From Cyanidioschyzon merolae (taxonomy: Eukaryota), in assembly GCA_000091205.1 (NCBI GenBank), contig AP006492.2: a stretch of 64,000 nt of DNA; one strand, 5' to 3'. Below are positions 1 to 34,400 of this stretch, in pieces. The position numbers were made by a program, and so were the translations under genes. The notes under the pieces were generated by a model. The model was not told where the DNA came from. It worked only from the letters and a program-made list of their open reading frames with translations, and did no database searches. Each line of letters starts with the position of its first letter. The first letter of the stretch is position 1.

Positions 1-302
1 TGCTCTGACAGCAGGTTGGCTCGGCGAGTGTCGCGGTGCAGAGGGGGAGACGTCGGGCACCAGCGTCTAGTGCAAGTTCACTGGTACAGAACGCAAAGGT
101 AACGGTGCTTGCTGGAAGCGGTTTGTGCAAACCTCTGTTTGAAATAGGTAGAGCGGTACTCTGATCTGTGCGCTGATCTTGCGGTGCACTGACGAGAGAA
201 AGCTGTGCAAGCGACTCGAGCGTCAACGATTGAGTTTGTGCAGTGCCTGCTGTGTACCGCAGTGAGCTGTGATAAGCCAAGCGGACTGCAGACTCGGAAG
301 TT

Positions 303-6979: not shown

Positions 6980-9490
6980 GCACGTGCACGCCCGACACCG
7001 CCAAACGTCTTTCAAAAGAAAAACGGTGTCACCGGCGGTGTAGAGGCGGCGAAACCCGCCTTAGACTAGACGTCATTAACTAACTTGCAGACGCCTCCCC
7101 GTCTTTTTCGACCGGCCACCCACTACTGCTTCCCATTTCTTCTCATATAGTTCCACTTTCAGTGACTGTCCAACAAAGAGCTCTCTTGTCTGCTCTGGAG
7201 GTCTTGTCTCCAGCACCGCTCATTTCCTTATATTGATGGCAGCATTAAAGTCGCGGTTCACAAACTCCATACGTTTCTTGCCATCACTGGTTGCACTTAC
7301 TAATGCAAAGAGTCCACGAACTTTCGCCCTCCTTTCCATTAGCTCCTCCGTCAGCGGTCCGTACTTTGCTATGTCCTTAGGGCTCCGCTGGCACATTTTC
7401 ATCTCGACCCTCTGAAGTTTACAACCCAGCTCATGGTGTGTATAAGATGTTCGGAACTCGTCTGCAGGTATTGTAACAAAACGCCGTGCACACTCCTTGT
7501 ACGTTCTCGTCGTTGGAGCTGGCGGAGTCCCTTTTTGGGTCATCCAGTGCACCGCTCTGTGCGCTACGACGAGCCTTTGAGTCTTGTCCTCTTTCGAGGC
7601 GCTCAACTCATGGAAAAAGTTCGCGAATGCACGCTGCTTTCCACAATACAGATTCATACACAGACGAGCTCACATGGGCTTTGTATACTCCTCCCACAGC
7701 GCCTCCCAATGAGCAACACGAACTTCCATGAATTTCCGAAAAGCTGTAAAGTCCGCTCCTCGGCTCGTCACCTCGCTCATAGCTTCCAGGTGCTCTTTCA
7801 TTCCTGAATTCCACGTCTCAGTTTTCTTCCTCGCATTCATGGTTCCCGATTCCCGGTAATATCTCGCATTCGAGAGCTTGAACACACGCATGTCTTTCTG
7901 ACGTAATTTGCCGTCAGTACCGTCTTCCGCACGCTTGGGTGCAGCAAGGGCTAGGATGTTCGTGCTCCCAGGGTCAAGGCCAACGACCAAGTCGTTCTCC
8001 TGCACCTCCTGCGTCGCAGGAACTGTCTCCTTGTTTTCTCCATGCTTCGTCACGGGCGAAGCCGAAGGCATGATAGGATGATCCGCATTCAAGCGCCGAC
8101 ACTGTAAGCATATGGATACCCCATCGATATGGATGATCCCTGTGAATGCTTTTTTCGTGCTCGTATTGAGACGTTTGAAATAGAAGATAGTCTTCCAATG
8201 AGTCTCCCGGTTATCGCCGGTGAACTCTATCTGCCTTACATCGAATTCCAGACTGATCTCCATCATGATGCCGTAAAGGACTCTGGAGTCGATCGTCACG
8301 AAGCATGACTTGACGTTGCACAACTGAAAGACGTTGAAGCACTTGCCCTGAAGCGCAGTCTTCCGTTTCACCGACTCTTCACGTTTTCCCCGCTCAGCTC
8401 CATCTACGCCTTGCGTTCGAATTCTCGGTTCAGGAGCACGATATAGCGCAGGATGAGGGGATAACATCTTTTTTCATATCTGATACCCTCTCTGCTCGAT
8501 CGACCTGCCCCAAGACTGCACGATGCTCTTTAATAGCCGGACGGATTACAGAAGCTTCGTTTCTGCTTCGGCGTGACGTCTTCTCGTCGAAAAATTCGAT
8601 CTGCTGTTCGTGCTGGCGATAAGTCCTGATTTCATTGATGCTAGCCCACATCCCCTGGCGAGAGAGGTCGGGGTTCAGCGCAAACATAGTGCGTATCATG
8701 AAACGTTCGAAGTTCACGATCATATGGTTCTTCAGGTCCGTGAGGTACTTAATTGCCCCGCAGGTGTATATATTCGAGTCACGCTCGTGTCGAGTGCCGT
8801 CGAAGCGGAATTTGGAGCGATTTGCATGGAGGGCATGCGGTCGCTCAGTTTCCGTCGACGTTTCCTCTGTGCCAAGCCTCAGGTGACGAATAAAGGCCTG
8901 GTCGAAAAATTCTTCCGGAACCTGGACTGTTTTCATGTGCGTCACGTCCCGAAACATCTCCTTCACCAAATGCACTAGCCATGACGAAGCCTTTATAAAA
9001 CTCATAGAGTACGACTCGACGCAGTTTCTAATGGCGTCTCGTAACTTTTCCTCGTACGGATCCTTGATATGTCGACGAAGACAGGCTTTCGCCACCATCT
9101 CGTCGTACTGTCATCTTGCTCGCAGCCTTTGTCGTAGGGCCCCCTGCCTCAGCTTTTTCGTCTTTTCCAGTTCCTTTTTGCTCTGGCTGCCGGCGACTAC
9201 AGCCCTCAAAGATCCTCCACTTTCATTTCCATAACTCTTCTTTTTTTATGTTTTTGAGCAAAAACACACTTTGAACGCTTCTGCTATAAACCGCGAATAG
9301 TCACTTGAATCCACTCCCATGAGGGTCAAAGCACAATTGAACTGAAAAACTCTACCTTGCTACGACTTGAAAGCAAATACAACTTGCACGTTAGAACTAC
9401 AGATCAACGAATAGTCAGGATTGCGTTCCCTTTCAACGGCGATACGCGCGTCGTGTCTCATGGATGCCAGAGCTCTCGGGTGCGCGTATC
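6980..9490 (-). mobile_element. Fanzor/TnpB-like element, copy A (~2.5 kb)
   Basis: Alignable with copies B, C and D from the right end (~85 nt past the protein stop; homology with B ends about 6980) to the left end (about 9485). Carries the TnpB/Fanzor-like ORF listed below. Confidence 0.6.
7063..9098 (-). pseudogene. Fanzor1/TnpB-like RuvC nuclease ORF, copy A (~630 aa, interrupted)
   Basis: ATG at 9098, with an in-frame TGA four codons upstream. RuvC-I 'NDLVVGLDPGSTNILALA'. Cys/His cluster 'KECARRF...HHELGCKLQRVEMKMC'. RuvC-III 'KKRMEFVNRDFNAAINIRK'. Defects: one frameshift near 8430-8467; in-frame TGA at 7670-7672 aligned to Trp (TGG) in copy B; TGA at 7220-7222 directly after 'NIRK'; TAATGA near the conserved C-terminal extension. 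The shared stop TAA at 7063-7065 matches copy B. Confidence 0.6.
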
Positions 9491-10203
9491 GGCCACGCTA
9501 TGTAGAACAAAGAACAGAGACTCACTACTAACTCGCAACGAGATAACAATTTCTTTTCCCCACTATGATAAATGTTAAAAGTGGGCAACGGTTTCCGCAC
9601 TGTCGAACGTTTACCTTCTCGGCGGAAGGTCCCACGAGCCAGACGAGTCTGCCGGGCTAGTGCTTCGTGCACAAGCGAGCGACGAGTTCAGTGGCGAGAC
9701 CTGAGCAGCTCGTCCGCAACGTAGTTTATTCTGGGACTAGGATCGGGTAGCCTGCGTCTGGGCGTCACTCTTGTTGCAGTGGCCTCCTAGTATATCAATT
9801 CGGATTGCCGCCTGTACTAGGTCCGTCTGCGCTGCTTGCAGGCTCCCAGAATGATTATGAATCCCAGATCCCCATCAGGTGAAGCTTTCCTCGATCCGAC
9901 GCCCTCTGTGGTTTGGCAACGCCGTTCTGCCTCCCTGCAGCATCTGCCCAGAGGTTTAGGCGCCATCGCCGATGCTCAAAGCAGGCAATCGGCACACGAT
10001 AGAACATACGAAACGACCAGTACATCCGAGAGAAAGTATAAGTAATGGAACTAGAAGACAGGGCACAGCATAATAAGTGTCTTCCCGTTTGCCTGTGACG
10101 ATCCCGCAATCTGGGATCCATGGACCATAGAGACAATGTACAACCATGAAAAATACGGCCCAAGAGGCAGCCAGCGCATCCTTTTTGACCGTTATGTACA
10201 TAA

Positions 10204-11427
10204 ATGTGTATTAACGACCAACTGCCCGTCACGACACCGCCGTCACGAATTTTTCAAACGCCCACACCGGGTGCCAGCCCAACGTGCGCGCGCCGGCATA
10301 CGTGTGCCGCGGCACTTTGCGGCTTTCGCGTGAATGTCAACAGCGTGAGCGTGCAGAGCCTCCGCATGCGGCCAACGGAGAAAACCTTCCACTTTCGGCG
10401 CAGATCAGAGTCTCCCGCTGGGGGTGCTGCGAAGCTGCCCGCACGCTCGGACTCTGAGCAACGATCTTGCGGTGTCCAGAACGAAAACAGAGCCGTTGTA
10501 GTGGCGGGCGAGGCAGCGGCGACAAGCGTTTGCGCGGAGCCCTGCGCTGGTGACAAATCGTCTGTCGGTATCCAAAAGCGGCACGGTGAACAACAGTCAA
10601 CGGGTGTGGTGCGTGGACTCGAGGCAGTAGTCTCTGCGAACGGGTTGCTCTGTGAGCGTATTCCGCGCGACATAGCCCAGGAGGTGCGGCTGCTCCGTCT
10701 GTGCGAGTGGTTCGCGCTTGCCTCTCTTGACGGTTTCCGCCAGCGCCTCGTCGCCTCCCAGGACCTTTACCAGAAAACTGCAGGTCTTGAATGCGTATCT
10801 GAGAACGAGCTGTGCTGTTGTATTGCGCTCTTTGAGGGTGCGGTATCCACGTTCTTGAAAGACATAGAGGAGCGTTTTGTCACACCAAATCGCTTACTCA
10901 CCAGCGCGCCTCCAGATACTCCAGAATCTGAGGAGCGTCCACGTTTAGAGGAGCTGACCTTCGCCGATGTGAACAGGTTGTTGCAAAGACCAATGCGACC
11001 GAACAAACACAACCAGCGAATGCGCAAATCCCTCAGCGCCCTTACTGCACTTGAAGCTCTGTATGACCGTGAAATTGCTGGCTGGGAGGACGTTCAGAAT
11101 TTCCTGCACGATGAGAATCAAGAGGCTATGGAGTCGGATGAAGCATGCGCCCTTTCGCCCGTTGACTCGACGCAAACCGACCAGGCGCTGCATGATATAC
11201 GCGACCACCAAAAGCGTTTAGAGGAAAATATTCTACTCCATCTAGACCAGCTGGAGCGACATCTGCAGCGCCTGTTCCTCAGGTACCAAGCAGCTGATGA
11301 GTTCTGTCTCAGCACCGCGCGTCGTATTAACTCAGATGCATTCGCCGGCCTCGTCGACATCGGAGAGACCCGAAAACTGCTCGCGAATGCGCCATCAGCC
11401 GTCTGGCTAGAGCAAGCGGAAGCCTGA
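10204..11427 (+). CDS. Hypothetical protein (no recognisable domain)
   Basis: 407-aa ORF; acidic, coiled-coil-like C-terminal half. The probable real start is an internal Met; no family assigned. Confidence 0.3.
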   Translation: MCINDQLPVTTPPSRIFQTPTPGASPTCARRHTCAAALCGFRVNVNSVSVQSLRMRPTEKTFHFRRRSESPAGGAAKLPARSDSEQRSCGVQNENRAVVVAGEAAATSVCAEPCAGDKSSVGIQKRHGEQQSTGVVRGLEAVVSANGLLCERIPRDIAQEVRLLRLCEWFALASLDGFRQRLVASQDLYQKTAGLECVSENELCCCIALFEGAVSTFLKDIEERFVTPNRLLTSAPPDTPESEERPRLEELTFADVNRLLQRPMRPNKHNQRMRKSLSALTALEALYDREIAGWEDVQNFLHDENQEAMESDEACALSPVDSTQTDQALHDIRDHQKRLEENILLHLDQLERHLQRLFLRYQAADEFCLSTARRINSDAFAGLVDIGETRKLLANAPSAVWLEQAEA

Positions 11428-15664: not shown

Positions 15665-15995
15665 GAGCACCTGCCAAGCCTGGGCACTGTTCTCGCAGCG
15701 CTCAAGTGCGGCAGCGGCAACGGTATTGGCGCCAATGCAATGCAGCGCGCCTTGGCGGATATGCATTGAGTCATGAGCAGTCTCTTGTGGTAGAGGCACG
15801 TTGGTTGGGTATACACTGAAGTCTATACCGTCAGTCAGAAGGACAGCTGGTACGCGGTGCTGGCAAGCGAGTTGTGTGACGAGCATCGAGCACAAAAGCA
15901 CGCTGTCGGGGGGCTTGTTGGGAGTAGCGTGTCTTGACGTTCTGGACGCTTTCATCGACCTACGCTGACGGGCTGGTGACCCTCGGGTCTGGAAA

Positions 15996-17387
15996 ATGAC
16001 CCGCCGTTTGCGGACAAGTCGTAATTCCAGGGAGCAAAAGCCTCAGGCGAGCAGATCGCAGGCCGCACGGCACGGCGAGTCGACGACAAGTGACGCGTTG
16101 GCGTGCCTAGGTCCAGACGCGGACGATGCGTTCTTCGCTGCGCGCTCGCGGGGCGCTGGAACCCCAGCGAGTGCGCTGAACCCACCGAGCGACTGCGGCG
16201 AGCCCGAGCACCACGCCGAGGACCTGGATGCTGAGAATAGAGCACCAAGCGGGGACAGATTGCCTCCGGAAGGAGGACCAGGAGCCATGCAGAGCACCGG
16301 CGAACATGGGGTTTGTGCTGCACATTCACCAGAAACGCCTGCGGTGACCGCACCGACGTCTGCTGGCTCTTGGGATGCACTGGACGAGGACCAGCAACGG
16401 CACCTTGTATCAACAGTAACGCGCTTCCTACTTGTCCGTGAACAATCGCGCATACCCGTGTTGAAGCGGGACATAACAAGCCTCGTGGCTGAAACCCTTG
16501 GGGTGCCGGCTGGTCCTCGAGGTCGATTTCCAACCTGGCTCACGACACTGCGGAACGCTGCTCTGGAACGCGCCGCACAAATGCTTCTTTTTGATTTGGG
16601 CTTTCGGGTTCTTCAGGTGGGTCGTCTTCCGCTTGGCGAGCATGCGAGGGGTCGCACGCGACAGGCTGCTCGTGGTTTAACGCTGACCGTAGCCCCCTAT
16701 CACTTCTATCAGGAGAGATGTCTGGTCGAGGGAGCACCACCGTCGCTCGACGAAGCGCCGCCTGGAAACGATGGAATGCCCAGTGATCTACTCCTGCTCG
16801 TTTCGGACTTGCCCCCAAAGCTGCGCCCACAGCCGAGGAGCATTGCTTTTTCGGGATTGCTCATGGTGCTTGCATGTCTCTTTGGTCTTTCCGACACCGG
16901 AATGATACAAGAGAAAGAGCTTTTCAATAGTTTTGCGCGAATCGGCTTAATGACCGTCCACAACAATTCCCAAGCTACCCGTGAGGCAGCGCTTCCAGCG
17001 CATACGCACAACGGAGACTATGTGCCTGAAACGAACCCATTGCGAGGTGTGCCGGCGAATGACGCCGACCCCGATGCCACTGGAGCTGTCTCCGGCGACA
17101 ACGTCTGGTTCCATGGGTACCAGCGAAAAGCTGACATCCACAAACTCTTAACGCTCTATCTCCCAAAAATGCTCTATTTGCAACGCTTTCGATTGAATAT
17201 CGCGGATTCGGAATGGACATACGCTGCAGGTCCTCGCCTCAGAGCCGAGCTTCCACCGGAAAGTTTGTTCGAGCTCCTGTGCGAGTTCTTTGGCGAGGAT
17301 GCGGACGAAGGCGCTGCAACGAATCTACGGCGCCGTCTCCTACCAGATCAGCCCGTGATGCTGAATGCATCACGTGCCGAATCGTAG
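15996..17387 (+). CDS. MAGE-homology-domain protein (Nse3-like, SMC5/6 complex)
   Basis: ATG at 15996. Central segment 'QQRHLVSTVTRFLLVREQSRIPVLKRDITSLVAETLG...LLFDLGFRVLQV' matches the MAGE homology domain pattern ('V..LV.FLL.K.....PI.R.DI....'). Low-complexity N-terminus. Confidence 0.5.
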   Translation: MTRRLRTSRNSREQKPQASRSQAARHGESTTSDALACLGPDADDAFFAARSRGAGTPASALNPPSDCGEPEHHAEDLDAENRAPSGDRLPPEGGPGAMQSTGEHGVCAAHSPETPAVTAPTSAGSWDALDEDQQRHLVSTVTRFLLVREQSRIPVLKRDITSLVAETLGVPAGPRGRFPTWLTTLRNAALERAAQMLLFDLGFRVLQVGRLPLGEHARGRTRQAARGLTLTVAPYHFYQERCLVEGAPPSLDEAPPGNDGMPSDLLLLVSDLPPKLRPQPRSIAFSGLLMVLACLFGLSDTGMIQEKELFNSFARIGLMTVHNNSQATREAALPAHTHNGDYVPETNPLRGVPANDADPDATGAVSGDNVWFHGYQRKADIHKLLTLYLPKMLYLQRFRLNIADSEWTYAAGPRLRAELPPESLFELLCEFFGEDADEGAATNLRRRLLPDQPVMLNASRAES

Positions 17388-17488: not shown

Positions 17489-18697
17489 CTAGGTCGCGTA
17501 GAGTACTTCAGCAGGCGAGTAATCGTCAAAAGCTCGCGGTGAGCGCCGATGCTCCAGTCGCAAGTGCTGGTGCACGTCCGGCCATACCTGCACACAATTT
17601 GGTCCATACGCTTCAGCAACAGCATGAACAGCTGTGTAGTACACCTGGTCAGTACGTACGAAGCACTTTTCACGGTTCAGGTGCGGTTTGCAAACGCGAT
17701 CAACGGGAGCGGCAGCACCTAGCCATGGCCTCCGGAGCGACGTCTGAGAGGCTTCGCTCCAGTTCAGAGCCGGTTCAATAACGTCGTAACGCCACCAGCA
17801 AGGCACTCGAACACTGCACAGGTTAATCGGTAGTTGTCTTTCAATGTCATCCAGCACATGCAGTACCGGGCTTTCCGGATTAGAGCGCAGCGCATTTTCG
17901 CTCGGAACGATGTACTCGTCCACATCTGCGAAAAGAATCCATTTGAATATGCCGCGATTCCGCCACAAACAATCGTTCATGGCTGCAATCTGAACATGAT
18001 TCCAGTGCACGCCCTTTGGTGGACGAAATGGCCACGCTATGATCGATACATTCGCAGGCACATCGGCGAGTCGCTCCGTCAATTCATCCCTAAGCTCCAT
18101 TATTCTGGAACCACAGGCATCCGGCTCATTGAGATAGATGAAAAAATTCCGAATGCCGACCCTTGTATGGTGTATGATCCACGACAGGAGGAGGCTCTGC
18201 GAAACGGAGCGTTCTACGTTGTTCGGCCGACGGTTCTCCTGAGACTCAGGGCGCAACCGCAGCATCGTCCAGGCAGCGAGATGTAACTGCTCGTTTGGAG
18301 CAGTTCCTTCGAAAGCATCGGCGTCTGGTTTGCACTGCAGAATGAGCACTTCGTTTTGCGGGTCTAGGCGTGGCGGGAGAACGCCACCGGGCGCACACCA
18401 CGTCGCTGCTGCTTGCTCTACAGTGCGCCGGTCCAGGGGCCCGCGAGCGCTCAAGACCAGCGTTTCAAGACCGTCACGTGACCGGAACCTGTCAAGGACG
18501 CGTAGCTTCGCGTAGGAGGTGATTCCTGTAGTCTCCTGGGTAAAACGGCATGCTTCTAGTATGGAAAGCGTGCGCTCGAGAGCATCGCCCGACCTGGAGT
18601 GAAGTAATACCAGGAGCGTCAGCAGCAGGACGCAACCGGACAGCAGTCTTCTCGGGAAACCTGTTCCAGACGCACCTCCGACACCAACAACAAACAT
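17489..18697 (-). CDS. Type II membrane glycosyltransferase, GT92 (DUF23)-like
   Basis: ATG at 18697 ('MFVVGVGGASGTGFPRRLLSGCVLLLTLLVLLHS' signal anchor). Luminal domain with a DxD-type motif in 'WILFADVDEYIVP', GT92-like. Its start codon lies inside sequence homologous to the Fanzor right end of copies A and C. Confidence 0.45.
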   Translation of the reverse strand: MFVVGVGGASGTGFPRRLLSGCVLLLTLLVLLHSRSGDALERTLSILEACRFTQETTGITSYAKLRVLDRFRSRDGLETLVLSARGPLDRRTVEQAAATWCAPGGVLPPRLDPQNEVLILQCKPDADAFEGTAPNEQLHLAAWTMLRLRPESQENRRPNNVERSVSQSLLLSWIIHHTRVGIRNFFIYLNEPDACGSRIMELRDELTERLADVPANVSIIAWPFRPPKGVHWNHVQIAAMNDCLWRNRGIFKWILFADVDEYIVPSENALRSNPESPVLHVLDDIERQLPINLCSVRVPCWWRYDVIEPALNWSEASQTSLRRPWLGAAAPVDRVCKPHLNREKCFVRTDQVYYTAVHAVAEAYGPNCVQVWPDVHQHLRLEHRRSPRAFDDYSPAEVLYAT

Positions 18698-21286
18698 CTC
18701 CCAAAAGAAAAACGTTGTGACCGCCAGTGGTGTACAGTAGTGGCGAGTGCTCCGCCTTAGACTAGACGTCGCCAACTGACGAGCTGATGCCTTCCAGTCT
18801 TTTTCGACCGGCCACCTACAACGGCTTCCAATTTTTTCTCATATAATCCCACTTTGAGTGGTTGTCCCTTAAAATTCTCTCTTGACAGCTGTGGAGGTTT
18901 TTTCTCCATCACCGCGCATCTCCTGATATTGATGGCGGTGTTAAAATCTCGGTTCACAAACTCCATACGTTTCTCGCCATTGTTGGTACTCACCAATGCA
19001 AGCAATCCTCGAACTTTCGCCATCCTTTCCATCTGCTCCTCCGTCAGCGGTCCGTATTTTCTTATCCTCAGGGCTCCTCATGCACATTCCTACCTCCACT
19101 CTCTGAAGTAGACACCCCAGCTCATGGTGTGTATACGACGTTCGAAACTCACCTACAGGTATTGTTACAAAGCGCCTTGCGCACTCCTTATACGCACTCG
19201 TCGTTGGAGCTGGCGTAGTTCCTTTTTGGGTCTTCCAGCGCCCTGCTCCGTATGCTACTACGAGCCTCTGACTTTTTTTATCCTCCTTCAAGGCGCTCAT
19301 CTGATTGAAAACGTTCGCAAATGCCCGCTGCCTCTCTCCGTATAGACTCATACGCAGACGAGCCCACCGGGGCATGGTATACTCCTTCCACAGTGCGTCC
19401 CAATGGGCAACGCGAACTTCCATGAATTTCCGAAAAGCAGTAAAGTCCGCTCCTCAGCTCGTGATCTCCCTCATAGCTTCGAGGTGATCCTTCATTCCTG
19501 CATTCCACCTCTCATTTGTCTTCCTTGCATTCATTATATCCGATTCTAGACAGTATCTCGCTCTCGAGAACCTCAAAAGACGCATGTCTTTCTGAGGTAA
19601 GTTGCCGTCAGTACCATCATCCGCACGCTTGGGAGCAGCGATGGTTATGATATTCGTATTCCCAGGGTCCGCGCCGACGACAAAGTCGTTATCTTGCACC
19701 TCCTGCGTCGCAAGATCCGCCTCCTTCTTTTCTGCATTCTTCGCCGCGCCAACGAAAGTCGTTATCCTGCACCTCCTGTGCCGCAGGATCCGCCTCCTTC
19801 TCACATTCATGGTTCGTCACGGGCGCAGCCGAGGGCGGGACTGGACGATCTCTCTTCAACCGCCGATAGTGTATACACAAGGCTACTCCATCGGTATCGA
19901 TCATCCCAGTGAGTACCTTTTGTTTGCTCACCCTCAGACGTTTGAAATCGAAGATATTCTTCCAGAACGTCTCCCGGTTTTCACCGTAGAATTCCTCCCT
20001 GCTAACATCGAACTCCGGACTGATCTCCTTCATGATGCCATGAAGGACTGCGGAGTCGATACTCACAAAATGTGACTTGATGGTGCACATCGGAACGATG
20101 TAGAAGCGCTTACCCATCAGGAAAGCCTTCCGTCTGTCCCAGTCTTCAGTTTTCCCCACTCAGCTTCATTTCTGCCTTGCGTTCGAGTTCTCGGTCCAGA
20201 AACACGAAATAACATAGGATGAGGCGATAGTATCTTCCCTTATCTTTTTCAACGCTGATATCTTGTCTGTTGGATTCGGCAGCCCCATGACTGCACGGTG
20301 CTCTTGTATATCCGCACGGATGACGGAGACCTTATTCGTGCTCTGGTTTGACGCCTTCTTGTCGACAAATTCGACGTCATCTTCACGCTTGCGATCGTTC
20401 GTGATGCCATTGATAATCGCTGATATTCCTTTGGGACAGATGCCCGGGTAGAGTGCAAACAAGGCGCGTATCATGTAACGTTCGAGGTTCACTGTCAAAT
20501 TGTTCTTCAGGTTCGCGGTATACTTTATCGCCCCGTATATGTAAATACCCCGGTCACCGCTTTATCGATTACTCTCGAGGCGGAATTCCGCCAAGTTTTC
20601 GTGGAGGGCATGCACTGGCTCATTTTCCCCCGCGCTTACTCTGTACCAAGCATCAGCTGACGAATAAACGTCGCATCGAAAACGCCGTCCGGGAACCTCG
20701 ACCGTTTCCATGTGCGTCACTTCGCGATACATCTCCCTCGCCAAATGCATCAGTCCTGACGAGGCCTTGACAATACTCTTGGAGTACGAGTCGATACGTT
20801 TTTCGATAGCGTTTCGCTAGTGTTCCCTGTAAGGATCCTTGATATGTTTAAGAAGAAAGGTTTTCACCAGCATCTCGTTGTACGGTTGTAGTTCTTGCGG
20901 CCATCGACTTGGGATATCCCCTTTTTGCGTTTTCTTCTTATGCTGTTCTTCTGAACTCGGTACTGTTTTTTTCTTTTCTGGCAGCCAGCGACACTGGGGC
21001 GTCAGGATCGCCGACTTGCTTTTTCATAACATCCTTTTTTTGTTTTTTTTTGAAAAGAACGCTCCATCAACGCCTCTGATATAGACCGCTAAATATCACT
21101 TGGATAAACTAAATTGAGCGTTGAAACATAATTGACCTGAAAAGTGTACTCTGTTATGACTTTAACGAATATACAACTTGTAATTGAGAGCAACACGCTC
21201 AAGATCGCGATCGCGTTTCCCTTCACCAACGACATGCGCGTGGTGTCTCATACCTGCCAGATATGGAGGTGCGCGTATCGACCGCT
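18672..21286 (-). mobile_element. Fanzor/TnpB-like element, copy B
   Basis: Right end about 18672, left end at 21286, where LINE sequence starts. Over roughly 18890-21040 it is about 98-99% identical to copy C (offset +10177). Its left end differs from the left ends of A, C and D. Confidence 0.6.
18757..20871 (-). pseudogene. Fanzor1/TnpB-like nuclease ORF, copy B (multiple frame breaks)
   Basis: Fragments align colinearly to copy A: N-terminus 'MLVKTFLLKHIKDPYREH*' (in-frame TAG), RuvC-I '[18 protein letters not shown]', Cys/His cluster, RuvC-III 'MEFVNRDFNTAINIRR', then a 60-aa extension ending '...VVGGRSKKTGRHQLVSWRRLV*'. Contains an internal ~57-bp tandem duplication ('QEVQDNDF' twice) and several in-frame stops. 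Confidence 0.6.
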
Positions 21287-22570
21287 ATAATCCCTTGGCA
21301 CACGGACTCGAACTCCAAATACCCTCGACAGAAGGTATAGCAGCAGGCTGCCGGGTACGTATATGGGCCAAAGGGCCCGCCATGCGCACCTCTTTGAGTC
21401 GGATTTTCATGCAGACCCCTACGCACCTCAAGAACACTTGGACGAAATTGACGCAGATTGGGCTGAAGCGCCTATTAGACGAACATACGCTCCCCAATCG
21501 TTCCCCAGGAATGTACAAGGCTCCCGCCGCCTCAAGCGAACGGTCCAAACAACAATATGGGAACGTAGACACGGAACCAGTCGCGCCAGTAACGCCGGCT
21601 TGATCCTATACCGGAGCTACAACCTAGCATACACATGCAAGTACTGGTGGGAGGCGCTGGAATTCCCGGGACTTGCTCGAGGTACCCAGTGGCTCGCCAA
21701 AATCCGCGTTGGTGGCTTCTGGCTAGCGGCACCGGCTCTAAGCCGTATAGGGACACTGGAATCGCACTGGGAGTCACACTGTCCCTGCTATCGAGACGAT
21801 AACCCCGAGACGCTGACATATTTAGGCTTACAGTGCCCGCGCTGGAAGCAGGAGCGCAGCGAGCTCCTTGAAGGACAGCAGCAGCTGGGCATCACCATGA
21901 TATCCGAGGGCCGGACACTCACTTTGAGAGCAGCACTGGCAACTGATGGTCCGCTAACAGATCCTCAGCGCTCATTAGTGGCGAACAAACTCACATGCTA
22001 CCTTCCAAGCGGAAGGTCCAGCGGATCGGATGCGCACACGGGCCCAGTGCTCTCTGCGCCTACCTTCTGTATGGGTGTCAAACACAAACCCGCATTGCCA
22101 ACCGACGACAACGCATTCCATGCATGATCACGAAAGAGAGAGGCGGCTCCCACGATATATCCTAACAGTCAAGTTTCTCCAGCGTGTCGAGCAGCGAAGA
22201 CAAGCCTGCATCCGCAGACTGTCCGAGCACACACTGACGACGAGACCCGATTCTACGTCGGGTGAAGCGCACCTTGAGCCGACGCCCTCTGGGGTATAGA
22301 AAAGCCGTTCTGTCTCCATGATGCATCTGTACCAAAGGTAAAGACGCTATTGCGGACAATTAGGACAGGTTCTGGGCACACGATAGGACGTATGAGATGA
22401 CCAGAATATCCGAGATGAAGGATAGGTAATTTGACGTGGAGGTACGGGGGTTGATGGATACCCCACCGCGCACTGTAAAAAAATAACGCAAAAAGTAAGA
22501 AAAGAAAAATGCGCACAATCGGAGAACGCTGGCCCAAGTAAACGCGTTGTCCGTGAAAAAGGACTCATCG
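21287..22570 (+). mobile_element. Non-LTR retrotransposon (LINE) 3' fragment: C-terminal RT/zf-RVT region plus 3' UTR
   Basis: About 93% aa identity to the 3' part of the longer minus-strand LINE at 31400-35100 (ORF 21363..22127 versus 31844..32614). Starts abruptly at the copy-B left end. Its 3' UTR extends further than in the inverted copy; the exact 3' end (before 22700) was not resolved. Confidence 0.6.
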
Positions 22571-22755: not shown

Positions 22756-24189
22756 ATGATAGCGTTCGTTATTAATTCTGCAACGAAGGCCGCAGTTAGC
22801 CCATTAAAAGGACAAATTTGCCGTGGTCTTCCGAAAAACCCGAGCTTTGCGGCGTCTACCTGGCTAGGGCAGGCTGCGCTCTCGACGCGGCCGCGAAGTT
22901 CGCAAGGGCGTGGGCGCTCCGGTGTTCGCGAAAGCGCAGCTACGCGCGCACGCGCTCCTGTTTGTGTTCAAACAAGTGACGTTGCTATGCGGGTCCGTTC
23001 TATTCGTGATTTGCAGGACGCTGAAATCCGCGGAAAAAGAGTGTTTGTTCGTTCTGATTTGAACGTGCCCCTTGATGGAAAGCGAATCACAGACGACACG
23101 CGGATTCGGGCGTCCGTCCCGACGATCAAGTACCTCGCAGACAAAGGAGCAAAGGTGATCGTCGTTTCGCACCTCGGGCGACCCAAGGGCGGCTTTGAGG
23201 ACAAATATTCCTTGGCGCCAGTGGCGGAACGTCTCTCGGAACTCTTGGGAAAGAAGGTTCGCATGGCAAAGGATTGTATCGGGGACGCAGTGGCGACCGA
23301 AGTAGCGGCTATGTCCCCTGGAGATGTTGTTCTTCTGGAGAACGTCCGTTTTTACCCTGAGGAAGAAAAGAACGACCCCGATTTTGCGCGCAAGCTAGCG
23401 GCGAATGCGGACCTCTACGTGAATGATGCGTTCGGAACGGCGCACCGGGCGCACGCGTCCACAGAGGGCGTTACCGCTTTTCTCAAACCCGCAGTGGCGG
23501 GATTCCTCCTCGAAAAAGAGCTGGATTATTTGTCGAACGCAATTGAGAGCCCGAAGCGTCCATTTGCCGCTATCGTTGGAGGCTCCAAGGTCAGCACGAA
23601 AATCGCTGTTTTGGAGAAACTTCTTCAAAAATGCGATACAATCATCATCGGAGGAGGCATGGTATTTACGTTTCTCCGCGCGCGCGGTCTGAAGACTGGT
23701 AGCTCGCTTGTTGAGGAAGACAAAATTGAGTTGGCACGAGTCATCGAGGAAGAAGCGCGCAAGCGGGGAATCGAGCTCCTCCTACCCCTCGATGTTGTCG
23801 TCGCCGATAAGTTCGCCAATGATGCGAATACAAAGGTCGTACCAGTGGAGGAGATTCCGGACGGATGGATGGGTCTTGATAACGGGCCAGAGACGACAAG
23901 AATGATCCAGGAGAAGCTTCGCACGATGAAGACTGTTCTTTGGAACGGGCCCCTGGGCGTTTTCGAGATGCCGAACTTTGCCAAGGGCACCTTTGCCATT
24001 GCGGAGACTCTCGCGGAGATCACTCAGAACGGCTGCATCACGATTGTGGGAGGTGGCGATTCTGTTGCCGCTATGGAGCAATCAGGTAAGGCGGACAAGG
24101 TATCGCATATCTCAACCGGTGGTGGCGCTGCGTTGGAGTTAATCGAGGGGCGGGTATTGCCAGGTGTAGCGGCGCTCCAGAGGGCGTGA
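22756..24189 (+). CDS. PGK: Phosphoglycerate kinase, plastid/cyanobacterial type, with N-terminal targeting-like presequence
   Basis: Full-length PGK. '[35 protein letters not shown]' and '[39 protein letters not shown]' follow the short-loop chloroplast/cyanobacterial form ('[37 protein letters not shown]'), not the longer cytosolic insert. About 78 aa Ser/Ala/Arg-rich presequence from the ATG at 22756. TGA stop at 24187. Confidence 0.9.
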
Positions 24190-27371: not shown

Positions 27372-28820
27372 TCAACAATCCGACCTCGGATTCTGCGCTT
27401 CTCTGACAGGCAGTTGTAAACGAGCGCTACTCCACTCGTACCGCAAAACCTGGTCGTATGTTTGGTGAAGAGCGGCCTCGCGTATCCATCGGTAGGTTTC
27501 AGCACAACCTGTGCCGCAGGCCAGATCCAAAAGCTGTTTAACCTGCTCCACACTGTACGCCCGACAATCAAGCCCCTTAGTGCTGCCGTCATCCAGAGCC
27601 ATATTTCGATAATCCACCCAAAGTAGCTGCACACCGTGCTCCAAACTGGAGCCAGCGTGCGGATCTCGAAAATCAACGATCCGCTGTGGAACGGGTTGGA
27701 ATGACTCGCCAGCAAGCACTGCGACTGTGACCTCCGGTACGACAGCTCCAAAGGCTGCCTGCCAAATGCGGGCCTGCTGCAGCTCCCAGTTGGAGGGATC
27801 CGCCGCCGCGACAAAGCGTCGGGCTCCGGAGCCTAGCTCCTCGGTCGGGAGTGCAACTGCGCTGCACGCGACAATAAGATCACGAAGCGGTACAGCGGCA
27901 TGTAGCAGCGCTAGGCTCACAGCGTTCACGGCAACGGCAAATTCGCTGCCATCGCTCTGGAGTACTTGGACGAATATGTCGACCTGAGCATGCGATGGCA
28001 TGTACCGAGAGGACCCTGCGCTATTGGCATCGCTTCCTACCAGTATAGCGGGTTCGAACACCTCGCGAATATGCTCTGCTGCTTCGCGGGACTTTTGGCG
28101 GAATTTGCTGCTCGCGACAATGCCTGGCAACCGGAAAGACCGCTCCGTCTGCGCTTCGTGTGGAGCCGCCTCTGTGCGACCTATTCGGAGAGCTCCATTC
28201 TTTTCATCGTGACTATCCATTGTACTGGTTCGCATGATGGCTGTGCCCGCATACCTGTTCTGTTGTCGACGCCTGTAGGCACGCAGGGTTCGCACCGAGC
28301 TCGCTGCCCCAGCGAAGGACGCTGTGCTGTACTCGCAGTGCACCCGGCCGTGTGCTGTTGCTGGTGGTAGCAGCTTGAGAGCAGTTGCGGGCGATTCGTT
28401 GCCTGGAGCGTTACTGATAGCTGAATCAGAGTGATCCGACTCCACCGTGTCAATGTTGAGAGCCGTCTCCATATCGGAGTCGATGCTGGAGTCGTCCGAT
28501 TCGGCGAAAACTGCACCTGCAACCGCTTGGGCTGGCCTAGCGGCGTGTGTCTCCGGGACGACTGGCGCTTGATACTCGGAAACCGCAGTGCGAAGTGCGT
28601 CATTGATCAGTGCTCGGGTGCTTGGTATACTCAAAGCTCCTTTTTTTGTTTCATAGGGGCCGTAGACAGCTACAAGCACCCGGGTTTGTCCTTGTTCTAC
28701 GAGAACACTCCCGTCGGCGCCCGGAACCACCCCAAGCTGTGCAGAAATGCTCCTTACTTCATCTGGTTTCCGTCCGTCAACACGCAGTCCATCAAGACTC
28801 AGTAGATCTTGGGGTTTCAT
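27372..28820 (-). CDS. Exosome RNase PH-like subunit (Rrp41/Rrp46 family) with a large low-complexity insertion
   Basis: ATG at 28820. N-terminal 'LRVDGRKPDEVRSISAQLGVVPGADGSVLVEQGQTRVLVAVYGPYE' and later 'HAQVDIFVQVLQSDGSEFAVAVNAVSLALLHAAVPLRDLIVACSAV' are the two RNase PH domain halves, separated by a ~190-aa Ser/Ala-rich insert. Confidence 0.6.
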   Translation of the reverse strand: MKPQDLLSLDGLRVDGRKPDEVRSISAQLGVVPGADGSVLVEQGQTRVLVAVYGPYETKKGALSIPSTRALINDALRTAVSEYQAPVVPETHAARPAQAVAGAVFAESDDSSIDSDMETALNIDTVESDHSDSAISNAPGNESPATALKLLPPATAHGRVHCEYSTASFAGAASSVRTLRAYRRRQQNRYAGTAIMRTSTMDSHDEKNGALRIGRTEAAPHEAQTERSFRLPGIVASSKFRQKSREAAEHIREVFEPAILVGSDANSAGSSRYMPSHAQVDIFVQVLQSDGSEFAVAVNAVSLALLHAAVPLRDLIVACSAVALPTEELGSGARRFVAAADPSNWELQQARIWQAAFGAVVPEVTVAVLAGESFQPVPQRIVDFRDPHAGSSLEHGVQLLWVDYRNMALDDGSTKGLDCRAYSVEQVKQLLDLACGTGCAETYRWIREAALHQTYDQVLRYEWSSARLQLPVREAQNPRSDC

Positions 28821-28849: not shown

Positions 28850-31400
28850 TCCGCGGCACCCCACGCAACGCGCCAACAACGCCGTTCTGAACTCGAACGA
28901 CGTCGAACGTGTACTGTATTGGCGACCAGTGCTCTAGACAAGAAGTCTCCAACTGATGTGCAGAGACCTCTCAGTTTTCTTGGACCGGCCACCTACTACG
29001 GCTTCCAACCTTTTCTCATATAATTCCACTTTGAGCGGTTGTCCCTTAAAATTCTCTCTTGTCAGCTGTGGAGGTTTTTTCTCCATCACCGCGCATCTCC
29101 TGATATTGATGGCGGTGTTAAAATCTCGGTTCACAAACTCCATACGTTTCTCGCCATTGTTGGTACTCACCAATGCAAGCAATCCTCGAACTTTCGCCAT
29201 CCTTTCCATCTGCTCCTCCGTCAGCGGTCCGTATTTTTTTATCCTCAGGGCTCCTCATGCACATTCCTACCTCCACTCTCTGAAGTAGACACCCCAGCTC
29301 ATGGTGTGTATACGACGTTCGAAACTCACCTACAGGTATTGTTACAAAGCGCCTTGCGCACTCCTTATACGCACTCGTCGTTGGAGCTGGCGTAGTTCCT
29401 TTTTGGGTCTTCCAGCGCCCTGCTCCGTATGCTACTACGAGCCTCTGACTTTTTTTATCCTCCTTCAAGGCGCTCATCTGATTGAAAACGTTCGCAAATG
29501 CCCGCTGCCTCTCTCCGTATAGACTCATACGCAGACGAGCCCACCGGGGCATGGTATACTCCTTCCACAGTGCGTCCCAATGGGCAACGCGAACTTCCAT
29601 GAATTTCCGAAAAGCAGTAAAGTCCGCTCCTCAGCTCGTGATCTCCCTCATAGCTTCGAGGTGATCCTTCATTCCTGCATTCCACCTCTCATTTGTCTTC
29701 CTTGCATTCATTATATCCGATTCTAGACAGTATCTCGCTCTCGAGAACCTCAAAAGACGCATGTCTTTCTGAGGTAAGTTGCCGTCAGTACCATCATCCG
29801 CACGCTTGGGAGCAGCGATGGTTATGATATTCGTATTCCCAGGGACCGCGCCGACGACAAAGTCGTTATCTTGCACTTTCGGGGTCACAGGACCCGCCTC
29901 CTTCTTTTCTGCATTCTTCGCCGCGCCAACGAAAGTCGTTATCCTGCACCTCCTGTGCCGCAGGATCCGCCTCCTTCTCACATTCATGGTTCGTCACGGG
30001 CGCAGCCGAGGGCGGGACTGGACGATCTCTCTTCAACCGCCGATAGTGTATACACAAGGCTACTCCATCGGTATCGATCATCCCAGTGAGTACCTTTTGT
30101 TTGCTCACCCTCAGACGTTTGAAATCGAAGATATTCTTCCAGAACGTCTCCCGGTTTTCACCGTAGAATTCCTCCCTGCTAACATCGAACTCCGGACTGA
30201 TCTCCTTCATGATGCCATGAAGGACTGCGGAGTCGATACTCACAAAATGTGACTTGATGGTGCACATCGGAACGATGTAGAAGCGCTTACCCATCAGGAA
30301 AGCCTTCCGTCTGTCCCAGTCTTCAGTTTTCCCCACTCAGCTTCATTTCTGCCTTGCGTTCGAGTTCTCGGTCCAGAAACACGAAATAACATAGGATGAG
30401 GCGATAGTATCTTCCCTTATCTTTTTCAACGCTGATATCTTGTCTGTTGGATTCGGCAGCCCCATGACTGCACGGTGCTCTTGTATATCCGCACGGATGA
30501 CGGAGACCTTATTCGTGCTCTGGTTTGACGCCTTCTTGTCGACAAATTCGACGTCATCTTCACGCTTGCGATCGTTCGTGATGCCATTGATAATCGCTGA
30601 TATTCCTTTGGGACAGATGCCCGGGTAGAGTGCAAACAAGGCGCGTATCATGTAACGTTCGAGGTTCACTGTCAAATTGTTCTTCAGGTTCGCGGTATAC
30701 TTTATCGCCCCGTATATGTAAATACCCCGGTCACCGCTTTATCGATTACTCTCGAGGCGGAATTCCGCCAAGTTTTCGTGGAGGGCATGCACTGGCTCAT
30801 TTTCCCCCGCGCTTACTCTGTACCAAGCATCAGCTGACGAATAAACGTCGCATCGAAAACGCCGTCCGGGAACCTCGACCGTTTCCATGTGCGTCACTTC
30901 GCGATACATCTCCCTCGCCAAATGCATCAGTCCTGACGAGGCCTTGACAATACTCTTGGAGTACGAGTCGATACGTTTTTCGATAGCGTTTCGCTAGTGT
31001 TCCCTGTAAGGATCCTTGATATGTTTAAGAAGAAAGGTTTTCACCAGCATCTCGTTGTACGGTTGTAGTTCTTGCGGCCATCGACTTGGAATATCCCCTT
31101 TTTGCGTTTTCTTCTTATGCTGTTCTTCTGAACTCGGTACTGTTTTTTTTCTTTTCTGGCAGCCAGCGACACTGGGGCGTCAGGATCGCCGACTTGCTTT
31201 TTCATAACTTCCTTTTTAAGTTTTTATAAATCAGCCCTCCGTGAACGCTTCTGTTATATACTGAGAAAAACAATCGAATATTTTCACTTGAGGGTTGAAA
31301 CACAATCGAACTGAAAACTATACATGCCTATGAAGTTAACAAAAATACAACTTTGACATTAGAGCTACATGCTAGATATCAAGATCACGTTTCCCTTTAA
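28850..31400 (-). mobile_element. Fanzor/TnpB-like element, copy C
   Basis: Near-identical to copy B over about 29067-31217. Its left end is about 55 nt shorter than in A and B and abuts the 3' UTR of the minus-strand LINE at about 31400. The right end lies about 30 bp upstream of the exosome-subunit ATG. Confidence 0.6.
28934..31048 (-). pseudogene. Fanzor1/TnpB-like nuclease ORF, copy C (frame breaks; RuvC-I Asp replaced)
   Basis: Same fragment set as copy B. RuvC-I reads '[15 protein letters not shown]' (Asp to Val). RuvC-III 'NRDFNTAINI' is retained. C-terminal extension '...RSKKTERSLHISWRLLV*'. Confidence 0.6.
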
Positions 31401-34400
31401 CGGCGGCATGTTTTTCATTAACAACGCGTTTACTTGGGCCAGCGTTCTCCGATTGTGCGCATTTTTCTTTTCTTACTTTTTGCGTTATTTTTTTACAGTG
31501 CGCGGTGGGGTATCCATCAACCCCCGTACCTCCACGTCACATTACCTATACTTCATCTCGGATATTCTGGTCATCTCATACGTCCTATCGTGTGCCCAGA
31601 ACCTGTCCTAATTGTCCGCAATAGCGTCTTTACCTTTGGTACAGATGCATCATGGAGACAGAACGGCTTTTCTATACCACAAAGGGCGTCGGCTCAAGGT
31701 GCGCTTCACCCGACGTAGAATCGGGTCTCGTTGTCAGTGTGTGCTCGGACAGTCTGCGGATGCAGGCTTGTCTTCGCTGCTCGACACGCTGGAGAAACTT
31801 GACTGTTAGGATATATCGTGGGAGCCGCCTCTCTCTTTCGAGATCATGCATGGAATGCGTTGTCGTCGGTTGGCAATGCGGGTTTGTGTTTGACACCCAT
31901 ACAGAAGGTAGGCGCAGAGAGCACTGGGCCCGTGTGCGCATCCGATCCGCTGGACCTTCCGCCTAGAAGGTAGCACGTGAGTTTGTTCGCCACTAATGAG
32001 CGCTGAGGCTCCGTTAGCGGACCATCAGTTGCCAGTGCTGCTCTCAAAGTGAGTGTCCGGCCCTCGGCTATCACGGTGATGCTCAGCTGCTGCTGTCCTG
32101 CAAGGAGCTCGCTGCGCTCCTGCTTCGAGCGCGGGCACTGTAAGCCTAAATATGTCAGCGTCTCCGGGTTATCGTTTCCGCAGCAGGAACAGTGTGACTC
32201 CCAGTGCGATTCCAGTGTCCCTATACGGCTTAGAGCCCGTGCTGGTAGCCAGAAGCCACCAACGCGGATTTTCGCGAGCCACTGGGTACCTCGAGCAAGC
32301 CCCGGAAATTCCAGCACCTCCCACCAGTACTTGCATGTGTATGCTAGGTTGTAGTTCCGGTATAGAGTCAAGCCGGCGTTACTGGCGCGACTGGTTCCGT
32401 GTCTACGTTCCCATATTGTTGTTTGGACCGTTCGCTTGAGGCGGCGGGAGCCTTGTACATTCCTGGGGATCGATTGGGGAGCGTGTTGTCTCCTAAGAGG
32501 CGCTTCAGCCCAATCTGCGTCGATTTCATCCAAGTGTTCTTGCGGTGCGTTCGGGTCTGCATGAAAATCCGACTCAAAGAGGTGCGCGTGGCGGGCCCTT
32601 TGGCCCGTATACATGCCCGGCAGCCTGCTGCTATCGCTTCTATTGAGAGTATTTGGAGTTCAAGTCCGAGTGCCAGCGCGGTGGTTGCCCTGCTCTGCAT
32701 TGAGCATCCAACAACAACGAGTCTCATTGCCCCGTTGGCGGCTGTCTGCGGACGCGAGGCATTTGTGTGCTTCATGCCGCACCACTCAGCACCCCAGGTC
32801 GCAGGCTGGGTGATACACATCCTTAGTGCCCTCGTACGAATTGCTATGCGGATAGAGGGGTCGGATGGGAATGAGCGTGCGATCGCTGTACCTCTATGCA
32901 TCTTGGCGATCATCTCGTCGACGTGTGCCTTTTCGTCGAGCGTCGGCGTGAGACCGACCCCCAGGTAGCGATATTTTTCCACGATCGGGATTTCCGGATT
33001 CTGCAACCGCCACGAGCGATTGCGAATGCTCTGCGAGTCTCCATGGATGACCATGACGCCGCACTTCGATGCTCCTATGCTCATCTCCCAGCGATCGGCC
33101 CAGTCGCTGACTTGTTGCATGCTAGCCGCAAGCGTTTCAGGGGCGGGTGCCAACAGCACGACATCGTCCGCAACTAGACGGCCTGCGAGGCGGTTCCTAT
33201 GTGAGGGCTCCTCATCGGGCATCTCCACAGTCTATCCACGGCACCTCAAGCCCGTATTGTCTGCAGTTGTTCAGCAGATCGTTGATGAAGATGTTGAAAA
33301 GGAGCGGGGATGCGCGCTCGCCCTGCCGCAGTCCACGGCGGATTCTTCTGGAAGGGGTTCTTGAGCTGTCGCCCAGTCGGATGCGCATCCATGAGTCTGC
33401 ATAGAGCGCACGGAAGAACGCTAAGCACTTTCCGGAGACTCCGGCGCGTTCCATCTTCAGAAATGGAGCCTCGTGCGGGACCGTGTCAAAGGCCTTTTGA
33501 AAGTCAATGAAGCATACGTAAGTTGGTTGTTGGCCGCTAATGGAGCGACGTTGCACCACTTCAGTTAGGGTCAGGACATGGCTCATGCACTCCTCGTGGC
33601 TCCGGAATCCAGCCTGTTCTGGGGCGAAGAACTTGCGTTCCTGGAGGCCTCTCTGGATCCGGTTCGTGGGAATGGCGCAAAGTAGCTTCATGATTGACGG
33701 GATGAGGCGCATAGAGCGGTAGTTGTTCATGTCTGTGTGGGAGTCCTTTTTGAGGATCGGTACGACCTCAGCAGTCCTCCATACATCCGGGATGTACGCC
33801 TCTTCGAACATGCGTTGGATGAGCTCCACAAGGCGTTTGCCTAAGCTTGTGTCAGATTCATCTGGTATTGATGGTGTCCCTGTTGTCCCGTCTTTTGGGG
33901 TCACCAGTTTCATCCACTCCGCAGGGATACCGTCGATGCCAGGTGTTTTGCGGTTGCATGACCTTAAGAGGGTCCGGACAGATTCAGGCCAGAAGATTGG
34001 GTCGTTCCATTCCGGTACCGATTCGAGGCGCGGTAGTTCTGCGGCATACTGGTGCCAATAGATTGGGTCTTGGCAGTGCCCAGTTGCTTCTTCATGCAGC
34101 TCTGTGCCGTGGTCCGTCCAGGCCTCATTCACTGAGGCACGCTCCGTCCTCAGCGCTTCCTCATAAACGATTGGTGTGAGCCCCAGGCACTTTTTTGGTG
34201 GGTCCAGTCTCGGTCGAATGTAGCGCCAGGTCTCATCTTCGTTGGTGCTCTCTAGCATAGATTTCGCCAGGGAGGCGATTTCGCGGTTTCGATCCTCTCG
34301 TTTGTCTTCTCTGGAAAGTTTCTTCTTTCTTTTGATAGCTTCTTCATGTTGCGCCTGTAGCGCCGTTAGGACTGCCTTCGCTTCCTTGTCTCCGGCGTTG

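Follow-up and report, generated by a model that had tools for sequence, protein, structure and literature searches.

In a 64,000-nucleotide stretch of the Cyanidioschyzon merolae genome (assembly GCA_000091205.1, contig AP006492.2), hereafter called the window, the minus strand holds four copies of one transposable element (TE) of about 2.2-3.1 kb which, judged by their sequence, are decayed copies of the known Fanzor1 family CMe-1A, with 76-87% identity to the published consensus. In a wider sample, the right end of this element faces the 5' end of a host gene on the same strand at 35 independent flanks, against 9 in the opposite orientation, and the genes on either side of the element are head-to-head in 9 of the 11 loci whose left side can be read. 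The right end itself consists of a terminal hairpin followed by a few G/T-rich bases; in one copy, the start codon of a GT92 glycosyltransferase gene lies within this hairpin, and a related species has the corresponding sites empty. We interpret these observations as a concentration of old, non-autonomous CMe-1A copies in short promoter-side gaps, mostly head-to-head ones, a reading to which we give a probability of about 0.6. While the family was already known, the promoter-side placement and the hairpin-born start codon were not found in the searchable literature.

Position of CMe-1A copies relative to host genes

The window has a GC content of about 55%, long unbroken open reading frames (ORFs) on both strands and tiny intergenic gaps. 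Each of the four copies, named A to D (Table 1), is followed on its own strand by a host gene recognised by Pfam, and mapping thus bears out the preliminary description, which had placed all four elements directly 5' of same-strand genes. When the right end is taken as the end of the terminal hairpin, that of copy A is at about 7004-7006, 96-98 nt from the TMED ATG (6907), that of copy C at about 28877, 56 nt from the RNase PH ATG (28820), and that of copy D at about 60657, 517 nt from the PMT ATG (60139), in agreement with an initial estimate of about 500 bp. The right end of copy B, at 18693, leaves the GT92 ATG (18697-18695) inside the 3' arm of the hairpin. The ends of copies A and C had previously been put at about 6980 and 28850, some 70 and 30 bp from the respective ATGs; both positions lie about 25 nt too far outward, since different copies have similar G/T-rich bases at the junction. 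Four co-oriented genes out of four (p ~0.06) are not significant by themselves.

The sample was extended with metagenome contigs. The TMED protein is found unchanged on many of them, and these contigs, about 98.7% identical to the window, all carry copy A. Scanning with the C-terminal 277 residues of the element protein yielded 298 relatives, among which 80 loci, corresponding to about 51 distinct places, were kept. Several of these loci share their samples with the TMED contigs, and they were therefore treated as other copies in apparently the same organism. Flanks were de-duplicated at the DNA and then the protein level, which left 41 further distinct right-end flanks in addition to the window copies and 44 independent flanks in the main tally, no two of whose first-gene proteins are homologous.

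Three gene-calling rules were applied to these flanks. A codon-usage score trained on long ORFs gave 35 co-oriented genes versus 9 opposite ones (44 flanks, binomial p = 1.1e-4), ATG-started ORFs of at least 120 aa gave 34 versus 11 (45 flanks, p = 8e-4), and ORFs of at least 100 aa gave 37 versus 8 (45 flanks). Among the 35 co-oriented loci, the right end lies at a median of 64 nt from the ATG, with at most 60 nt in 17 of them and at most 130 nt in 25; about ten loci have an ATG within 22 nt. The enrichment of right ends near same-strand start codons, for which the preliminary description had proposed a genome-wide tally, is seen in this sample. The downstream genes are ordinary host genes, with strong Pfam domains in 14 of the 19 ORFs tested; among their products are HSP70, an ATP synthase alpha/beta-family subunit, phosphoglucomutase, a carboxyl transferase, a bicarbonate transporter and a release factor. 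In unoccupied intergenic DNA of the available contigs, the expected co-oriented fraction is only 0.38-0.43, because tail-to-tail gaps are long and head-to-head gaps short (down to 40 nt); the null value of 0.5 used above is therefore conservative. An example of such a gap is present in the window at 15955-15996, where the ATGs of an FAA-hydrolase-like gene (minus strand) and a 463-residue gene (plus strand) lie head-to-head and 40 nt apart, so that promoters here must be tiny or overlap neighbouring genes.

Head-to-head geometry

At the 11 loci with a readable left side, the left gene points away from the element in nine (copies A and B of the window, L099, L100, L073, L026, L082, L103 and L104), and is in tandem only in L102 and possibly in L008. 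The tally made from 3-kb flanks was mostly uninformative on this side, where repeats are found, and six longer contigs were added. Copy A is as close to its left neighbour (about 58 nt to the ATG) as to its right one, and copy B reaches its left neighbour, PGK, across a fragment of a long interspersed nuclear element (LINE). A head-to-head gap places a co-oriented 5' end at the right end of the element whichever way the element is inserted, which accounts for the same-strand placement. Furthermore, if about 80% of the co-oriented cases are head-to-head, the nine opposite cases are about what is expected from tandem and tail-to-tail gaps in the absence of any orientation bias. What remains as the actual signal is therefore that copies are in strong excess in head-to-head promoter gaps, and not a strand rule for the right end. 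A preference for 5' untranslated region (UTR) or promoter DNA, the first explanation offered initially, is in this way upheld for location, with 35 of 44 flanks facing a 5' end, but its same-strand part is largely a matter of geometry. At locus L100 (7280-10972; also L070 and L075), two tandem Fanzor copies occupy one head-to-head gap upstream of a Kri1 gene.

Anatomy of the right end

Alignment of the 41 distinct loci with the four window copies holds up to ...CTGTACAC, which is followed by the hairpin and then by divergence; the end of the published consensus, ...TTTTGAAAGGCG, falls in the hairpin's 3' arm. Only one pair, L024 with L055, is young; its two members share 99.2% identity across the final 500 nt and cease to match right past ...GAACGGCGTT (...TAGAACGGCGTT). 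Almost every copy shows the terminal hairpin, which the sense strand forms and whose pairing is kept in several sequence versions through compensating variants. One of them is GTCGTTCGA-CTT-TCGAACGGC (CGA/TCG), with a sister version carrying CTA/TAG; the TTTTTC/GAAAGA type is exemplified by AACGTTTTTC-TTTT-GAAAGACGTT; and L071 has an unrelated, perfect 12-bp stem. Many T-G wobbles pair on the sense strand only, an observation that is no more than indicative, the hairpin finder favouring such pairs, and that would fit a structure formed by sense-strand RNA or single-stranded DNA.

Past the hairpin, about six bases are G/T-rich, A being nearly absent at positions +1 to +6. GGTG is enriched about 7-fold in the right flanks, and by about +7 to +13 the information content is down to background. 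These junction bases could be either the tip of the element or a target motif. That they represent a general feature of 5' UTRs was considered and rejected, since the DNA upstream of 18 other genes contains 5 GGTG per kb and has CACC just as often.

The GT92 start codon within copy B

Read on the minus strand from 18716 down to 18678, the end of copy B is AACGTTTTTC TTTT GGGAGATGTT, immediately followed by TGTTGTTGGTGTCGG. The triplet that serves as the GT92 ATG is GCG in the consensus and ACG in the copy A subfamily (GAAAGACG), from which copy B differs by a single C-to-T change. The GT92 frame is open from 18775, and the ATG at 18697 is its only one upstream of a Met at about residue 143. 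The predicted protein shares 60% identity with the orthologue P0058, similarity extending from residue 39 on, and carries a 17-residue N-terminal tail preceding a type II signal-anchor segment, RRLLSGCVLLLTLLVLLHS. As far as can be judged from these features, ATG 18697 would be the functional start; being the only ATG before the conserved protein, it implies that the leader and the transcription start must lie inside the element. The preliminary description had regarded the first codons, 'MFVVGVGG', as homologous to the right ends of copies A and C. This holds for the ATG and the next two bases, which belong to the hairpin, whereas the later codons fall in the G/T-rich junction motif, which is either element or target.

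A locus of a related species (L087; GCA_041825655.1, JBBELT010000625.1) keeps the gene order of the window between 12.6 and 28.8 kb, namely RNase_PH, PGK, GT92, a 467-residue gene, FAA_hydrolase and Surp. No Fanzor or LINE sequence was detected in this syntenic locus by blastn or tblastn, and its orthologous sites are thus empty. About 445 nt separate PGK from the called GT92 ORF. In this ORF, an internal Met about 70 codons downstream of the called start gives a better alignment with the window protein. The N-terminus of RNase PH, MKPQDLLSLDGLR, is identical in the window and in the related species, and ATG 28820 is therefore older than copy C. Conservation between the two does not extend to the N-terminal tail of GT92, which fits an insertion at or inside the first codons of the gene. 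The comparison with element-free loci that had been proposed yielded an empty locus, but none at nucleotide resolution. Exact-protein look-ups for empty alleles or transcripts left RNase PH and PMT unmatched, and the matches to TMED and GT92 were all genomic.

Does the right end act on host genes?

A different explanation would be that the last 200 nt or so, the region expected to encode the omega-RNA, form an outward-reading unit which provides the host gene with its promoter and 5' leader, only co-oriented, ATG-adjacent insertions being tolerated or favoured; the bias would then reflect selection. Several observations speak for it. The GT92 leader must be element sequence, and at the ten or so loci with an ATG within 22 nt of the right end, leader and transcription start probably also lie in the element. 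Of their own upstream DNA, essential genes (HSP70, the ATP synthase alpha/beta-family subunit, RNase PH) retain no more than tens to a few hundred bases, and other transposons accumulate at the left end of the element, not between its right end and the ATG. In addition, the tail is conserved at synonymous positions. Within it, CTATATGAG (columns 41-50 of the 41-tail alignment; L004:3811-3850) is nearly invariant, third codon positions included, which points to a constraint at the nucleotide level, from RNA or from a promoter. The intact protein P0001, of 752 residues, ends shortly before this sequence (after ...RENFIG), and the consensus ORF runs about 130 nt further.

Against this explanation, tail identity to the consensus is 0.872 for gene-adjacent copies and 0.876 for the others (Mann-Whitney p = 0.79), which gives no sign of a conservation imposed by the host. 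Nor does conservation of the tail exceed that of the coding region, the head-to-head geometry already accounts for co-orientation, and the left end of copy A is equally near the ATG of its own neighbour. RNA polymerase III stops at runs of T, and the T5 and T4 runs of one hairpin type would stop it before the flank. With regard to structure, the tail of about 190 nt is conserved across loci, but a hand-built six-helix model, 81% paired, has covariation not above that of shuffles, RNAalifold found almost nothing in the 41-tail alignment, and Rfam returned no match to the tail. The proposal that the element end acts as promoter or 5' UTR thus stands for the GT92 leader, while signs of promoter function are lacking and gene-adjacent tails are not better conserved; as an account of the bias, we hold it to be rather unlikely. 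Its stronger form, in which the Fanzor right end is an omega-RNA unit doubling as host promoter and leader and dozens of housekeeping genes are expressed as omega-RNA-mRNA chimeras, seems to us more doubtful still. Were it true, the 'guide' segment of each chimera would be the leader of the gene itself, or the first codons of GT92, an RNA-guided-nuclease transposon would be directly tied to host gene expression, and the rise of a transposase-less family to about 150 copies, in a genome that has hardly any other repeats, could be explained.

RNA-guided homing, in which the omega-RNA guide of a parent copy, matching its own right flank, would steer Fanzor to similar sites that happen to lie in 5' leaders, predicts flanks resembling those of the parent. 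The right flanks are indeed non-random in base composition, copies A and B share GGTGTCGG in their flanks, and those of L024 and L055, which differ, are both G/T-rich. However, the loss of information by about +7 to +13 and a pairwise flank similarity of 9.4 matches of 20, compared with 8.5 in controls, led us to reject a similarity of guide length, only about six G/T-rich bases being common. Moreover, GGTG is neither enriched nor strand-biased upstream of other genes, which leaves ATG-adjacency unexplained, and the left flank of the Fanzor core has no conserved motif and adjoins several different repeat modules. We consider homing very improbable. Guides that read into host leaders, as initially suggested, follow automatically if the element is of OMEGA type, because the guide is whatever flanks the right end; no special function for them emerges, the flanks sharing those six or so bases only.

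Finally, chance or ascertainment, that is, luck at the four window copies and a wider tally skewed by contig breakage, redundant loci and spurious ORFs, is hardly credible in spite of the p value of about 0.06 for the window, contigs that often break inside the repeat and home-made gene calls, since the flanks were de-duplicated and their first genes are mutually non-homologous, the three calling rules agree, most tested ORFs carry strong Pfam domains and contig breakage cannot favour either orientation of the neighbouring gene.

Proposed account

The concentration of old copies in promoter-side gaps could have arisen as follows. CMe-1A, a Fanzor1 element with a putative TnpB-like protein, is devoid of terminal inverted repeats (TIRs), ends in a sense-strand hairpin and a few G/T-rich bases, and resides in a compact, intron-poor red-algal genome, where its copies are gathered in promoter-side gaps. 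They may have gone into promoter DNA that was open or single-stranded, and this would count for more than survival following insertion at random, so that preference would outweigh selection, and integration itself might proceed through a single strand in a hairpin-dependent manner. With a head-to-head gap of only tens to hundreds of bases, the same-strand ATG would come to lie tens of bases from the right end, and host genes may then be transcribed from or through the element end. Copy B would have landed at or in the first codons of GT92, and the C-to-T change in the 3' arm of its hairpin (ACG to ATG) would have created the start codon.

Several points weigh against this account. Sequence alone cannot separate insertion preference from selection after insertion, and no transposase is encoded. 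The boundary of the right end is uncertain by up to about 15 nt, GGTG-like bases recurring at variable spacing, and between 5 and about 20 nt of the coding sequence next to copy B may be element-derived. No empty site turned up at nucleotide resolution, all TMED and GT92 contigs of apparently the same organism carrying the element or breaking inside it. As for sampling, the 80 loci represent the best-preserved C-terminal coding regions of about 300 relatives and not a random sample, gene calls on the contigs are our own, from ORFs and a codon-usage score, and left context is readable at 11 loci only, other transposons often being present on that side. Overall, the placement seen by the preliminary description extends beyond the window, but the analysis lends no support to promoter upkeep or guide homing.

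Family identity and relation to known systems

CMe-1A was described as a Fanzor1 family of C. merolae with about 150 copies, about 80% identical to a consensus of about 3 kb, with no TIRs and with undetermined target site duplications (TSDs) (Bao & Jurka 2013, PMC3627910). The consensus (3169 bp) and the CMe-1 protein used here were taken from the additional files of that article. Copy A spans the whole consensus, and its conceptual product shares 70% identity with the CMe-1 protein over 581 residues (E = 0). Copies B and C are 83-87% identical to the consensus, and the window copies 65-81% identical to one another, the B/C pair excepted. In all four, the element ORF is disrupted by frameshifts or stop codons, making them pseudogenes. 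A TIR search revealed no inverted repeat linking both ends of any window copy, and TSDs were not seen at these copies, a weak point since they are old. The window elements thus agree with the published family in lacking TIRs and detectable TSDs and in the roughly 80% identity of copies, and the published description gives neither placement relative to genes, nor the right-end hairpin and its variants, nor a start codon inside the end (PMC3627910).

Table 1. Coordinates of the elements, their ends, host genes and adjoining retroelements in the window
Feature	Position	Strand	Remarks
EMP24/TMED (TMED/p24) host gene	6278-6907	minus	Pfam
Copy A, CMe-1A	7004-10146	minus	full length including 5' 'TE-N2' module; one frameshift and in-frame stops; consensus 24-3169 = window 10123-7006, 84% identity
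Copy A hairpin	7006-7025	minus	CGTTTTTC-TTTT-GAAAGACG
5' 'TE-N2' module of copy A	9497-10146	minus
Host gene head-to-head with TMED	10204-11427	plus	ATG 10204 about 58 nt from copy A left end (~10146)
GT92 glycosyltransferase host gene	17489-18697	minus	Pfam
G/T-rich junction	18678-18692	minus	TGTTGTTGGTGTCGG, encodes FVVGVG; resembles junctions of copy A and locus L076
GT92 start codon	18695-18697	minus	last 3 nt of published CMe-1A consensus
Copy B, CMe-1A (Fanzor1)	18693-21288	minus	without first ~648 nt of published consensus; ORF frameshifted; consensus 649-3162 = window 21285-18702
Copy B hairpin	18693-18716	minus	AACGTTTTTC-TTTT-GGGAGATGTT; GT92 ATG in 3' arm
LINE-like retroelement fragment, 5'-truncated	21296-22560	plus	adjoins copy B left end
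PGK	22756-24189	plus	head-to-head with GT92
RNase_PH (exosome subunit) host gene	27372-28820	minus	Pfam
Copy C	28877-31410	minus	consensus 703-3137 = window 31405-28909
Copy C hairpin	28877-28905	minus	CGTTCG...GAACG type
LINE-like element, longer copy	31411-~35300 (outer limit approximate)	minus	RVT_1 ORF; 3' end adjoins copy C left end
PMT host gene	58442-60139	minus	Pfam
Copy D	60657-62838	minus	most decayed, degenerate hairpin; 76% to consensus; consensus 984-3145 = window 62838-60682

The Fanzor1/TnpB signature is D-X(125-275)-[TS][TS]-X-X-[C4 zinc finger]-X(5-50)-RD (Bao & Jurka, PMC3627910). The translated element contains GADPGNTN (D; GxDPGxTN), EFRTSYTHH (TS) and NRDFNAAINI (RD), its zinc finger being HH..C..C, not C4. 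Pfam gave no match to the element protein fragments and, with the intact P0001, only a sub-threshold hit to PF07282 (E = 0.23) at the RD motif. Searches of PDB sequences, with phmmer on a single sequence and with a profile, found no match to the element protein, a profile search of a large protein collection matched only close Fanzor family fragments, and an AlphaFold2 model of P0001 (56-sequence alignment) had a mean pLDDT of 45, unusable for fold search. No Y1 TnpA was encountered, the sole ORF of the copies being Fanzor and the 152 family proteins found being all Fanzor fragments. Across Fanzor copies, a protein-coding unit of about 75 nt (window 19669-19801 and 29846-29978; P0001, P0009) is tandemly repeated about one to five times.

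The element resembles the OMEGA systems (TnpB of IS200/IS605, SpuFz1) by its putative TnpB-like protein, in which D...TS...RD motifs can be read, and by a conserved region that overlaps and follows the 3' end of the ORF up to the right end; by analogy, the flank just past this end would be the guide. Its subterminal hairpins recall the ends of IS200/IS605, and hairpins occur at both ends, as in that type, the left one being judged by eye only. In contrast, no TnpA or other transposase is present, no TAM was recognised, and SpuFz1 is carried by an element bounded by TIRs (Saito et al. 2023, PMC10432273), whereas CMe-1A has no TIRs. Non-autonomous Helitron/Helitron2 elements of Chlamydomonas that carry Fanzor1 are also devoid of TIRs (Bao & Jurka 2013). 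The hairpin close to the 3' end and the variable or chimeric 5' regions are shared with Helitrons too. Helitrons are often found near gene 5' ends. The 3' end of CMe-1A is nevertheless ...GGCGTT (CGAACGGCGTT) and not CTRR, no 5' TC terminus was recognised, the hairpin reaches the very terminus instead of lying 10-30 nt inside, and no Rep/Hel partner is known for the family.

Left ends and neighbouring repeats

The bodies of copies B and C, which lie 10 kb from each other, match at 100% along about 2.1 kb (18890-21020 and 29065-31198), shared frameshifts included, but identity is only 70-80% at both element ends. A recent transposition pair, which would have defined the ends, was rejected given this central-only identity, and the tract looks like a recent gene conversion between two old copies. 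The left ends of both adjoin LINE-like sequences (21296-22560, plus strand, and 31411-32675, minus strand) that are 95% identical and lie in opposite orientations beside the Fanzor left-end cores; the same LINE-Fanzor junction is present in locus L004.

The 5' 635 bp or so of CMe-1A are common to TE-N2_CMe (PMC3627910). This 'TE-N2' part was observed at 9497-10146, 22257-22444 and 31527-31699 of the window and in L026, L068 and L078. In about 15 places its outer end adjoins a T-run, an A-tail when read from the opposite strand; its similarity to the LINE 3' end, at consensus positions ~86-270, is in antisense; and it is found in both orientations beside the Fanzor left-end core. The 5' part of the consensus may be a separate retroposon joined to the Fanzor unit, as its sequence suggests, and the 3169-bp consensus is probably composite. 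A left-end core hairpin, GCGCTC-GGT-GAGCGC, was recognised by eye in most copies (window ~9470-9500, 21260-21290); the repeat modules upstream of it vary from copy to copy and are of at least four kinds, and no conserved motif appeared at the left flank of the Fanzor core among the copies compared. Retroelements seem to be drawn to the Fanzor left end.

Elsewhere in the window, a very long, repeat-rich ORF of 1842 aa is present on the plus strand (37100-43100), with dozens of units spaced by 66, 78 and 90 nt. These units are preceded by 15-nt repeats of GGPGG type (37118-37297), and the opposite strand also has long ORFs.

Significance

Insertion biased towards promoters and TE-derived 5' UTRs or start codons are known from other transposons, e.g. 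Tf1 in fission yeast, P elements and MITEs. The placement of CMe-1A and the GT92 start codon would fit this behaviour by analogy, including promoter-proximal location and TE-derived leaders. As in those cases, the element is enriched in promoter-side DNA of a compact genome, and a host gene starts inside a transposon; the difference is that it belongs here to the Fanzor, RNA-guided-nuclease class, and that its gene-adjoining end is expected to encode the guide RNA.

It is chiefly as a source of genome-editing enzymes that Fanzor elements have become known, and little is known of their life in hosts. In the present case, about 80% of the sampled copies have the end expected to carry the guide RNA against a gene's 5' end, for the most part within head-to-head promoter gaps, and GT92, an essential-looking gene, now starts inside the element. 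Annotators should be aware that start codons and 5' UTRs in the C. merolae genome can lie in transposon ends. With its small genome, efficient homologous recombination and few other repeats, C. merolae is a testable system in which the integration sites of Fanzor elements, the capacity of their ends to drive or disturb host transcription, and the natural targets of their guides become approachable questions.

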